A stretch of 37,417 nucleotides of DNA from an uncultured Nitrososphaerota archaeon (GTDB lineage: Archaea > Korarchaeota > Korarchaeia > Korarchaeales > Korarchaeaceae), in assembly GCA_964594835.1 (NCBI GenBank), contig CAZQNA010000008.1, positions 64,432 through 101,848 on the forward strand, written 5' to 3'. The first letter of the stretch is position 1. Each line of letters opens with the position of its first letter. A program made the position numbers and the translations under genes. Of the stretch, positions 3,487 through 19,063 are shown piece by piece. A model generated the notes under the pieces. It had not been told where the DNA came from and made no database searches. It saw only the letters and a program-made list of their open reading frames with translations.

Positions 3487-3563
3487 TGGCGCCCGGGCCG
3501 GGATTTGAACCCGGGTCTGGAGCTCGACAGGCTCCTATGCTGGCCTGGCTACACCACCCGGGC
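3487..3563 (-). tRNA. tRNA-Asp(GTC), CCA encoded, no intron
   Basis: Reverse complement GCCCGGGTGGTGTAGCCAGGCCAGCATAGGAGCCTGTCGAGCTCCAGACCCGGGTTCAAATCCCGGCCCGGGCGCCA folds as a cloverleaf; anticodon arm GGAGC-CTGTCGA-GCTCC. Confidence 0.97.
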
Positions 3564-15436: not shown

Positions 15437-16849
15437 ATGGCGGGGGATGGCCTGAGGCGGCTTGGGGAGGACTGGCTGATTCCGGTTGGGACCGCCTTGT
15501 GCTGGATCGTGCTCGGAATAGCGTTCACCATATACGACTCTGGAAACTGGATTCCCAAGTCCTTTGAACCATCGATCCTGCTCCTCAGGGTCGGCGCGGT
15601 TATGGCGACTGTGGTCCTCCTGTTCGCCTTCTTCATGGCGTGGAGGGAGAGGCTGGAGTCCTTCCTCCTCCCGGACTGGGAGAGGTCCCTGTCTTCGGCC
15701 CTCCTGGTGGCGTTCGGGGGATACGTCGCCCTGATGAGCTCGGTGTTCGAGGTCACCCCGGCCACCAGGGCCCTGGGGCTCCTGAGCCTCACCGTGGGGG
15801 CGATCGGCTTCTCTTGGTTCATGTCGGCGGCCGTGACCAAGGTGGCCGCCTTCCTGAGGTACCTCAGGCCGCCGCCCCGCGTCGACCTGCTGGGCGCGGC
15901 CGGCCTCTGGGCCCTCGGCGCCCCCGTCGTCGCCCTGGCCGAGTGGGCGCTGGGGTGGAAGTACGCCCTCAGGCCGGCTCCTCAGATGCCCGACTCCATC
16001 GCCCACCTCGTCCTGGTACTGATGCTGTCAGTGCCCACAATGAAGCTGGCCTCCCTGTTCCCGAGGATGAGGGGGCCGAGCCGCTGGTTCGTCTCCAGCA
16101 TGCTCGGCGGCTATCTGGCCGGCCTCACGGCCGCCTTCGTCGCCCTCGCCGACGACCTCGTGTACCTGCCCACCCTCCTGACGGACCTGTGGGTCCACGG
16201 CTCCGTGGTGGCGGCCGGGACGTTCGCCCTGCCGCCCCTCCTCTACTTCTCAGGCTCCACCTCGCTGATATCCGCCGGGTCCCCCGCCCCAGAGCGGCTG
16301 GAGGGGTCGGGGATCTACCTGGGACTGGCGTCCCCCGGGTCCAGGTACGTGGAGAGGCTCTACCTCCGCCTCAAGGTGGGGCTCGACGACGGTCGCCCCG
16401 TGATCGTGATGACGAGGCGCGGGTCCCCCCTGGACCTGTTCGAGCCGCTCCTGAACGAGGCGGAGCTGGTCATACACCTCTCGACGGTCGAGGAGACCCG
16501 CGACTACTGGGATCCGGGGAAGCCGCCCATGAAGGTGTCCGCGGACATAAGGCACGTGGGGCGCGCGATACGGGGGCTGGCCGAGGTCAGGGGGGCCGTG
16601 ATAGTTCTGGACAGCCTGACCGACCTAGTGGCCATAAACGGGCATGAGGCAGTCGTAGACATGCTTTCCTCCGTCAGGTCCAGGCTGGCGTCGTCGGGCG
16701 TCATCCTGCTCGCCACCATATTTCCAGAGGCGCACGAGGAGTCTGAACTCTTCGAGCTTGAGGCCCTGTCCACGGAGCTGCTGGACCTCAGGGTCCCCGC
16801 CGCGCCGAGTAAACCGAGGAGAGAGATTGCGCCGGCCCAGGAAACATGA
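15437..16849 (+). CDS. Multi-pass membrane protein fused to an inactivated KaiC/RecA-like (DUF835-type) C-terminal domain
   Basis: About 8 hydrophobic segments, then degenerate P-loop ASPGSRYV, Walker-B-like VIVLDSLTDL and 'FPEAHEESELFELEALS'. ATG 15437 after AGGAGAGG. Confidence 0.7.
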   Translation: MAGDGLRRLGEDWLIPVGTALCWIVLGIAFTIYDSGNWIPKSFEPSILLLRVGAVMATVVLLFAFFMAWRERLESFLLPDWERSLSSALLVAFGGYVALMSSVFEVTPATRALGLLSLTVGAIGFSWFMSAAVTKVAAFLRYLRPPPRVDLLGAAGLWALGAPVVALAEWALGWKYALRPAPQMPDSIAHLVLVLMLSVPTMKLASLFPRMRGPSRWFVSSMLGGYLAGLTAAFVALADDLVYLPTLLTDLWVHGSVVAAGTFALPPLLYFSGSTSLISAGSPAPERLEGSGIYLGLASPGSRYVERLYLRLKVGLDDGRPVIVMTRRGSPLDLFEPLLNEAELVIHLSTVEETRDYWDPGKPPMKVSADIRHVGRAIRGLAEVRGAVIVLDSLTDLVAINGHEAVVDMLSSVRSRLASSGVILLATIFPEAHEESELFELEALSTELLDLRVPAAPSKPRREIAPAQET

Positions 16850-16894: not shown

Positions 16895-16912
16895 TAGAAA
16901 ACTGAATAAAGT
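16895..16912 (+). promoter_or_regulatory. Putative BRE/TATA for the C/D sRNA (and possibly kaiC)
   Basis: TAGAAAACTGAATAAAGT, with AATAAA 21-26 nt upstream of 16931. Confidence 0.5.
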
Positions 16913-16930
16913 AGATCGAGTTGGAACACT

Positions 16931-16992
16931 GGGGCCGATGAGGTCGGAGGTGATCACAGAGGCATGATGAGGCTCGAAAGGTCCGAGGCCCC
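16931..16992 (+). ncRNA. Box C/D methylation-guide sRNA (candidate 1)
   Basis: Terminal stem GGGGCC/GGCCCC; C CCGATGA 16935-41; D' CAGA 16957-60; C' ATGATGA 16964-70; 12-nt guide; D CCGA 16983-86. Confidence 0.8.
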
Positions 16993-17001
16993 CGCAAATC
17001 G

Positions 17002-17727
17002 GTGGTGATAGCGTTGTCTGGGGAGGAAAGGGCCGAGATAGAGAGGGTCGACACCGGGGTCCCGGGTTTCGACGAGATAGTCGGGGGCGGCCTGCCGAGG
17101 CCCGGCGCGATACTGGTGGCAGGGAACCCGGGTACCGGGAAGACTACCCTGGCCGGTCAGATCGCCTACCACAGGGCCACTCGGTACGGGGAGAGGTTCT
17201 ACTACATGACCCTCTCTGAGCCTGCCGACCAGATCAAGCTCCACTTCAGGCTGCTCGGCATGGACCTAGAGGAACTCGAGAGGAGGGAGCAGGCCAAGTT
17301 CCAGGAGCTGATGCCCTTCACGGCCTCCACCGAGTACGTCCGCTCTGCCCTGGAGAACATGATAGCGGCCGTGGAGAACGCCAAGCCCGACCTCTTGGTG
17401 GTCGACAGCGTCTCGGCCATGCTCCAGTTCCTCCCGCCCGAGCAGGTCAGGCCGCTCCTGAGCATGATAGTCAGGATCACCCACGAGGTTGGGATGCTCA
17501 CCCTGCTCATAGCGGAGCTGCCCATGCTCGGCCCAGTCAGACTATCGGGCGTGGAGGAGTTCATAGCCGACGGCCTGATCATCCTCAGGCACGAGGAGAC
17601 GCGGGAGGGGCTGACGACCCGGATAAACGTGGTTAAGCTGAGGCTCTCCAGGCACAGCAGGGAGCACTACGGGGCGGCCATCACGGACACCGGCTTCATA
17701 GTCCTTGGCCCGATGAGGCTCGAGTGA
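17002..17727 (+). CDS. KaiC-like (RAD55/COG0467) single-domain ATPase
   Basis: RVDTGVPGFDEIVGGGLP, Walker A GNPGTGKT, Walker B LLVVDS, EFIADGLI, VKLR. Start may be GTG 17002/17005 or TTG 17014. Confidence 0.9.
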   Translation: MVIALSGEERAEIERVDTGVPGFDEIVGGGLPRPGAILVAGNPGTGKTTLAGQIAYHRATRYGERFYYMTLSEPADQIKLHFRLLGMDLEELERREQAKFQELMPFTASTEYVRSALENMIAAVENAKPDLLVVDSVSAMLQFLPPEQVRPLLSMIVRITHEVGMLTLLIAELPMLGPVRLSGVEEFIADGLIILRHEETREGLTTRINVVKLRLSRHSREHYGAAITDTGFIVLGPMRLE

Positions 17728-18942: not shown

Positions 18943-19063
18943 TGGTCCCCCGGCCGGGATTTGAACCCGGGACCTGCCGGTTACTGCGCGAGCGGCCGCC
19001 GACGGAGGTCGGCGAGTTCGCCAGACCCTACAGCCGGCCGCTCTGCCACTGAGCTACCGGGGG
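18943..19063 (-). tRNA. tRNA-Tyr(GTA) with a 46-nt intron at 37/38 (18982-19027), CCA encoded
   Basis: 5' exon CCCCCGGTAGCTCAGTGGCAGAGCGGCCGGCTGTAG; 3' exon ACCGGCAGGTCCCGGGTTCAAATCCCGGCCGGGGGACCA; CTGT/GCAG central helix; TTTTATTT upstream. Confidence 0.95.

Follow-up and report, generated by a model that had tools for sequence, protein, structure and literature searches.

A predicted box C/D sRNA in a korarchaeal genome, with guides complementary to the anti-Shine-Dalgarno tail of 16S rRNA and to tRNA-Glu(UUC)

Does a short gap between two open reading frames of an uncultured archaeon hold an RNA gene, and if so, which RNAs would its guides select? The gap lies in the window, by which we mean the whole 37,417-nt stretch of DNA that was analysed (positions 64,432 to 101,848 of contig CAZQNA010000008.1, assembly GCA_964594835.1); the host assembly is archaeal and comprises 1.82 Mb in 24 contigs, with 65% G+C. 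The data sets listed as containing this DNA are hydrothermal-vent metagenomes and an 'organism A', among which its source may lie, and they include no RNA run. A sequence-only reading of the same stretch had proposed a box C/D sRNA with a C/D'/C'/D layout and a terminal stem, whose D' guide is complementary to the anti-Shine-Dalgarno (anti-SD) end of 16S rRNA. The best explanation, to which we assign a probability of roughly three in four, is a box C/D RNA of about 62 nt, whose D' guide would direct formation of a 2'-O-methylated C (Cm) in 16S rRNA and whose D guide would direct methylation of U34 in tRNA-Glu(UUC).

Anatomy of the RNA and its locus

The 62 nt from 16931 to 16992 are arranged as GGGGCC-G-AUGAGGU-CGGAGGUGAUCA-CAGA-GGC-AUGAUGA-GGCUCGAAAGGU-CCGA-GGCCCC and contain the GAUGA core (Table 1). 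The register of the C box follows from a copy in a genome of another genus (G011), which reads AGGCC-G-AUGAUGA-CGGAGGUGAUCU-CAGA-...-CUGA-GGCCU; alignment with this copy (GAUGAUGA) places the C box at AUGAGGU and not at the upstream CCGAUGA. With the C box AUGAGGU paired to the D box CCGA, the D' guide has the canonical length of 12 nt, not 15 nt, and both guides are exactly 12 nt long once the C box is re-registered. The D' guide reads CGGAGGTGATCA, ends directly at its D' box, and encloses the 10-mer GGAGGTGATC (16946-55). The length of 15 nt given by the sequence-only reading has therefore to be corrected, because the GGU at its start belongs to the C box, while the complementarity of this guide to the anti-SD tail, described below, stands with 10 nt.

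Table 1. Features of the predicted sRNA and its surroundings (window coordinates)
Feature	Coordinates	Strand	Remarks
Putative BRE/TATA-like promoter element GAAAACTGAATAAAGTA	16897..16913	+	about 24 nt upstream of the sRNA 5' end; A/T-rich
Terminal stem, 5' half, GGGGCC	16931..16936	+	pairs with 16987-92
K-turn bulge G and C box AUGAGGU (16938-44)	16937..16944	+	assigned from the G011 comparison and the 12-nt spacing
D' guide CGGAGGUGAUCA	16945..16956	+	positions 2-11 complementary to the 16S 3' end GAUCACCUCC
D' box CAGA	16957..16960	+	CCGA in G001, G003 and G004
C' box AUGAUGA	16964..16970	+	preceded by the 3-nt linker GGC (16961-63)
D guide GGCUCGAAAGGU	16971..16982	+	complementary to tRNA-Glu(UUC) of the same genome, nt 30-41
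D box CCGA	16983..16986	+	invariant in genus g1; covaries with the C box
Terminal stem, 3' half, GGCCCC	16987..16992	+	pairs with 16931-36
KaiC-family ATPase gene, downstream	17002..17727	+	Pfam PF06745, E 8e-46; not part of the sRNA

In a K-turn, tandem G.A pairs are followed by a pair between position 5 of the C box and position 2 of the D box. The boxes AUGAGGU and CCGA each keep the GA that this geometry requires, and the U.U usually found at the following pair is replaced by G-C, a form that resembles the K-turn of U4 snRNA. The internal D' and C' boxes are joined by a short linker (CAGA-GGC-AUGAUGA), as a K-loop requires, and for both guides the complementarity to a target reaches at least 9-10 bp with a Watson-Crick pair at N+5, the fifth nucleotide upstream of the following box. 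Counting against the assignment, two of the boxes, D' (CAGA) and D (CCGA), deviate from the consensus. The single-strand fold is no better than that of shuffled sequences (z 0.32) and gives no support, an unremarkable fold energy relative to shuffles being usual for C/D RNAs.

At the Rfam gathering thresholds the window yields two tRNAs and no C/D family. The best matches below threshold, whose E-values range from 0.05 to 2.4, are to generic C/D models, namely sR14 (16.4 bits, threshold 38), sR-tMet (17.3 bits, threshold 50) and sR47 (14 bits, threshold 40), and a search of 18 loci of family members gave no Rfam family either. As a side observation, the tRNA match at 18946-19063 (-) spans 118 nt for a 71-position model, and this tRNA probably contains an intron; the second tRNA of the window lies at 3490-3563 (-).

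The predicted sRNA is located in a 152-nt gap downstream of a 720-aa ORF that ends at 16849 and has a weak DUF835 match. The promoter suspected by the sequence-only reading is backed by conservation: the columns AA.TGAATA.A.TA are invariant in four genomes of the same genus (g1), while their flanks diverge and the sequence between this block and the sRNA varies. In genus g2 a different, conserved block, TTGATTTATATG, is found at a similar distance upstream. The TATA-like conservation of GAAAACTGAATAAAGTA suggests promoter function, and with it transcription of the RNA. On the 3' side, a KaiC orthologue directly follows the sRNA in all genus-g1 loci, and with a spacing of 10-22 nt co-transcription of the two is possible. 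The start of the KaiC-family gene is probably TTG 17014 rather than GTG 17002; an SD-like GGTGGTGAT at 17001-09 precedes this TTG, and G003 reads GGAGGTGAT at the same spot. A KaiC-like gene of about 25% identity also lies directly downstream, on the same strand, in two contigs of named metagenome-assembled genomes (MAGs) that hold distant family members (L078, L094), and this may reflect an old linkage or chance. ARAGORN found no tRNA in locus L040, and we do not claim the G011 copy to be tRNA-adjacent.

The genome also encodes the proteins expected of a box C/D particle: fibrillarin (PF01269, 297 bits) and Nop5 (PF01798, 229 bits) in adjacent genes, and L7Ae (PF01248, 105 bits). We picture an RNA of about 62 nt, transcribed on its own, that would fold into a box C/D K-turn (AUGAGGU/CCGA) on a 6-bp stem and a C'/D' K-loop, and that would assemble with L7Ae, Nop5 and fibrillarin.

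Conservation, covariation and the chance background

A DNA search of 40 relatives recovered the region in three of the four other genomes of the genus; the genome that lacks a match (G002) is 72% complete. In all three cases homology begins at query base 52-53, which corresponds to window position 16931-16932 and thus to the 5' end of the predicted RNA. In the resulting four-way alignment the C and D boxes are unchanged and the guides are nearly invariant, each showing a single change (at position 1 or 12), while the flanks diverge, so that the boxes are conserved together with the guide in related genomes, as the earlier reading had proposed to check. The C' box is conserved in G001 and G004 and degenerate in G003 (L038), where CUGGUGUGGA replaces AUGAUGA with both guides intact.

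Beyond the genus, the pattern ATGANNNNGGAGGTGATCNCNGA matches 10 of the 43 genomes of the phylum, distributed over four genera (g1, 4/5 with our own genome counted; g2, 4/5; g3, 1/21; g5, 1/4), and the reversed control gives no match. When the C' box is added to the pattern, 55 contigs are found in a collection of genomes from 185,579 species, all of them archaeal, and the C/D layout is visible in each of these named loci. By record title, 21 belong to Desulfurococcales or Desulfurococcaceae, 7 to Njordarchaeota, 5 to Sulfolobales and 7 to Thermoproteales, Thermoproteus, Thermofilaceae or Thermoprotei; 6 are titled 'Thermoproteota' or 'Crenarchaeota archaeon', 6 'uncultured Nitrososphaerota', and one each Heimdallarchaeota, Methanomethylicia and 'archaeon'. 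The form seen in genus g1 recurs in two contigs with the record title 'Thermoproteota archaeon'. Guide positions 2-11 read GGAGGUGAUC without exception in the 10 phylum loci and the 55 named loci, positions 1 and 12 vary (C, U, A or G at position 1 across the family), and the D guide differs between lineages. An invariant core of ten positions with variable edges and a changing second guide fits selection by a universal 10-nt target, and judged by these loci the D'-guide family is very widespread.

The boxes themselves vary in a coordinated manner. From 58 loci, one exact duplicate was dropped and two without a heuristic D box were skipped, which left 55 distinct rows. With A at C-box position 5 the D box has G at position 2 in 7/7 rows, and with G it has C in 6/6, although some heuristic D-box calls are doubtful and each of these two classes stems from only two or three lineages. 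The 42 rows with U divide into 39 U/U, 2 U/C and 1 U/A. These counts indicate that the box positions covary as the K-turn requires. Terminal stems of at least 3 bp are present in 27/55 rows, compared with 8% after the 3' sides had been exchanged among the rows.

How much of this could be fortuitous? With both strands counted, the 1.82-Mb genome contains 53 copies of the 10-mer GGAGGTGATC, which by itself is not beyond chance. The strict regular expression C/12/D'/C'/12/D finds five sites in the genome, the sRNA at 16931-16992 included, and none in the reversed genome, and the full architecture is beyond chance. That the motifs came together at random in GC-rich DNA between genes, as the abundance of the 10-mer might suggest, is excluded by conservation, covariation and the empty reversed controls, and we regard it as hardly credible. 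The layout put forward by the sequence-only reading, with its terminal stem, is thus borne out by the architecture, by the five sites against none and by the conservation within the genus. Further box C/D candidates from the same expression are located at G000:C2:1, C6:123880 and C9:1880 (G000 is the present genome). Two other candidates of this genome likewise have G at C-box position 5 (AUGAGGU/AUGAGGA) together with a CCGA D box. The true number of sRNAs in the genome is surely higher than the number of sites found by the regular expression.

It could be argued that GGAGGTGATC is simply the Shine-Dalgarno sequence of a leader ORF of 14 codons (ATG 16964 to TGA 17006-08), translationally coupled to the KaiC-family gene, and that no RNA gene exists here. 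Indeed, 13 of the 53 copies stand immediately before ORFs of 60 aa or more, in the place of a Shine-Dalgarno site, which indicates that the organism uses the 10-mer in this way; most of the remaining copies have no such ORF start downstream. At our locus the ATG begins 8 nt past the motif, and the stop of the leader overlaps GTG 17005. However, the leader ORF is not conserved: in G001 and G004 its length is 10 codons, and in G003 the change in the C' box removes its ATG. The element is moreover present without a KaiC orthologue, since a KaiC match of at least 70% identity is found only in the five genus-g1 loci among 64, and the covariation of the boxes and the 12-nt spacings would be meaningless for a Shine-Dalgarno site. 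We consider this explanation very improbable.

Predicted targets of the two guides

The 16S gene of our assembly is cut at a contig end and covers model positions 4-747 only, and therefore the target of the D' guide was read in relatives; two primer-site motifs of the 16S 3' domain were not found in the assembly, nor was a 23S gene. In 13 relatives the 16S rRNA ends with ...GGAUCACCUCC, one reading CGAUCACCUCC, and the 3' ends of all 13 contain GAUCACCUCC. Against the last 10 nt of this conserved end, as seen in the same-genus genomes G003 and G004, the D' guide forms 10 Watson-Crick pairs, and within the rRNA genes of these two genomes GAUCACCUCC is its best match. The duplex, of only 10 bp, has a calculated energy of -19.7 kcal/mol at 37 C and is bounded by a mismatch on each side in genus g1. 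A 12-mer match to the guide of G004, located 620 nt behind its 23S gene, was rejected as chance, being apparently coding and absent from our own genome.

At N+5 the guide has G16952, whose partner is the C of GAUC. We take this C to be C1533 in E. coli numbering, and the target nucleotide named by the sequence-only reading is thereby upheld. The number agrees with PMC5389701. A second proposal, that an extra 5' GGUC of the guide pairs with the pre-16S trailer, fails: the GGU lies in the C box, the first guide position is variable, and in place of the expected GACC the 16S end of both G003 and G004 is followed by CUUUU. The base after the 16S end is C in seven loci of the same family.

The D guide has a target of its own. 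In the host genome it is complementary to GCCUUUCGAGCC, nt 30-41 of tRNA-Glu(UUC) (G000:C9:31833-31910), with 11 Watson-Crick pairs, one G.U pair and an energy of -21.1 kcal/mol, and its N+5 nucleotide faces the wobble base U34 in an A-U pair. The D guides of G001, G003 and G004 read ...GGC, with C at position 12, and thus form 12 Watson-Crick pairs with tRNA-Glu. This match, which points at U34, is new. In G003 the D guide also has a perfect 10-bp match (L100:5437), located some 870 nt past the 23S gene, where ARAGORN finds no tRNA; it was set aside because the match to tRNA-Glu is better.

Taken together, we propose that the D' guide pairs with the ten conserved 3'-terminal nucleotides of 16S rRNA, that is, with the extended anti-SD tail, and that fibrillarin would be placed on the C of GAUC to yield Cm. 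For the D guide, the partner would be the anticodon stem-loop of tRNA-Glu(UUC) or of its precursor, with U34 as the nucleotide to be 2'-O-methylated. A possible effect on the ribosome would be a stiffer anti-SD tail that resists hydrolysis and nucleases, in a hot-vent organism with long Shine-Dalgarno sequences.

A further complementarity was noticed after the fact. Three nucleotides behind the encoded CCA of tRNA-Glu(UUC) the genome reads GATCACCTCC, the complement of the D' guide (G000:C9:31833-31923, L107). Within 40 nt downstream, GAUCACCUCC is found for only one of the 41 tRNAs, tRNA-Glu(UUC), and the expectation for one given tRNA, calculated from the 53 genomic copies of the 10-mer, is about 6e-4. 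The trailer motif occurs in 5/5 genomes of genus g1, always 3 nt past CCA and with the rest of the trailer diverged, and in none of the 38 other genomes of the phylum, which either lack the sRNA pattern match or, in the six that were read, have a different D guide. Because both the anticodon region and the trailer of tRNA-Glu are matched, both guides could bind a single precursor, at sites separated by about 45 nt. Could the D' guide then serve mainly as an anchor or chaperone and not as a methylation guide? In genus g1 it would hold the precursor at the trailer GAUCACCUCC, and the D guide would meanwhile open the anticodon stem for methylation of U34. As another possibility, the D' guide would mask the anti-SD of immature 30S subunits. 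Sequential or chaperone roles have been proposed for Nanoarchaeum equitans sR13 (PMC5389701) and, in a 2021 review, for dual guides generally. However, the same D' guide is kept in dozens of lineages with D guides unrelated to tRNA-Glu, which excludes the trailer as the target of this guide in general; the co-occurrence in genus g1 represents a single evolutionary event, spotted post hoc; and methylation at the same C has been measured in Ignicoccus hospitalis (PMC5389701). We thus judge a main role as anchor or chaperone to be unlikely, and treat the trailer match as a lead from one lineage that does not define the main function of the guide.

The preferred reading, with methylation of 16S rRNA by the D' guide, can be extended to include the trailer. 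In genus g1, one sRNP might clamp pre-tRNA-Glu(UUC) at two sites, the D guide opening the anticodon stem-loop for methylation of U34 and the ancient anti-SD guide docking on GAUCACCUCC, a copy of the 16S tail evolved in the trailer behind CCA, so that the trailer would be a landing pad which borrows a guide kept for the ribosome; the family as a whole would at the same time be the guide for Cm1533 of I. hospitalis and other Crenarchaeota. We offer this combined proposal tentatively, as a possibility that is less likely than its negation. If true, the clamp could couple maturation of tRNA-Glu to the pool of 16S-free sRNP, and the D'-guide family would be among the most widely conserved archaeal guides.

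Relation to known guide RNAs

That a box C/D guide can act against the anti-SD tail, and that a methyl group resides there, is already established, and the sequence-only reading overrated the novelty of the guide: Pyrococcus furiosus sR26 has the same one, and Cm1533 and Am1534 have been measured in two archaea. The D guide of wild-type P. furiosus sR26 is CGGAGGUGAUCU, and its RNP methylates GUAGAUCACCUCCG in vitro (PMC4836650). The same RNA is a standard of box C/D structural work (PMC4836650 and PMC7089733), and according to figure legends of PMC3124441 its abundance in P. abyssi allows its use as a loading control on Northern blots. A comparison of CGGAGGUGAUCU with CGGAGGUGAUCA shows 11/12 identical positions in the same register before the following box, so that the same C of GAUC is selected. 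The two RNAs differ in other respects: the anti-SD 12-mer is the D guide in sR26 and the D' guide in our RNA and the 55 contigs; the other guide is GUGAUGGGCGAA in sR26 and directed at tRNA-Glu here; and sR26 has the canonical boxes AUGAUGA and CUGA in place of AUGAGGU and CCGA. The same pair of guides at the same positions, which would mark orthology, is thus not present. We suggest by analogy that our guide works like the D guide of sR26, a likeness that need not imply common descent of the whole RNA. In the text searched, '16S' is absent from PMC4836650 and PMC7089733 and 'Shine' from the latter, and our literature search did not yield a link between sR26 and the anti-SD.

For I. hospitalis, Cm1533 was measured and said to involve 'a presently unknown sRNA' (PMC5389701, Seistrup et al.). 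Although the organism is different, this is exactly the nucleotide selected by the D' guide of the window. The order of Ignicoccus contributes 21 of the 55 family members, titled Desulfurococcales or Desulfurococcaceae, and we predict by analogy that the D'-guide family is the obvious candidate for the guide of Cm1533. The same paper reports Am1534 in N. equitans and assigns it to sR13, the guide of which is complementary to 16S nt 1531-1540. Like our RNA, sR13 is a box C/D RNA that methylates within the anti-SD; in contrast, its register is shifted by one, which leads to Am1534, and its second guide is directed at helix 44 (Am1408) and not at a tRNA. With respect to the D guide, the closest parallels are Pyrobaculum sR26, sR27, sR45 and sR46, whose N+5 is position 34 of a single tRNA species (PMC6009581). 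Those guides target tRNAs for Trp, Gln, Val and Thr, and the accessible text describes no second complementarity to a trailer.

Our literature search returned no named conserved sRNA family tied to Cm1533, though the supplementary tables of Dennis 2015 and Lui 2018 and Fig. S3 of Seistrup 2017 may list such RNAs. A 2021 review states that no methylation site is common to all seven species analysed, and a term search of the available text of this review and of a 2015 analysis returned no mention of the anti-SD. What the present comparison would add to the known systems, going by genome data, is a widespread D'-guide family, a candidate guide for Cm1533, and a probable U34 guide for tRNA-Glu with a matching trailer in one genus. 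The known mechanism of box C/D guides is unchanged by these findings.

It is through the anti-SD tail that the ribosome selects mRNAs, and the organism uses Shine-Dalgarno sites of up to 10 nt. The guide is invariant across orders of Thermoproteota, MAGs labelled Njordarchaeota and the present lineage, and it is found also in Pyrococcus sR26, which suggests that archaea of hot habitats have widely retained methylation of C1533. If functional, the trailer match of tRNA-Glu would bring a box C/D RNP to a pre-tRNA in a new manner.

One more C/D candidate of the host genome touches on sR26. It is located on contig C5 near 102625 (-), has the boxes AUGAGGU ... CCGA and a stem GGCGCC, and its D guide UUGAUGGGCGGA matches 10/12 positions of the P. 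furiosus sR26 D' guide GUGAUGGGCGAA. By this resemblance, the two guides of sR26 would be carried by separate sRNAs in G000.
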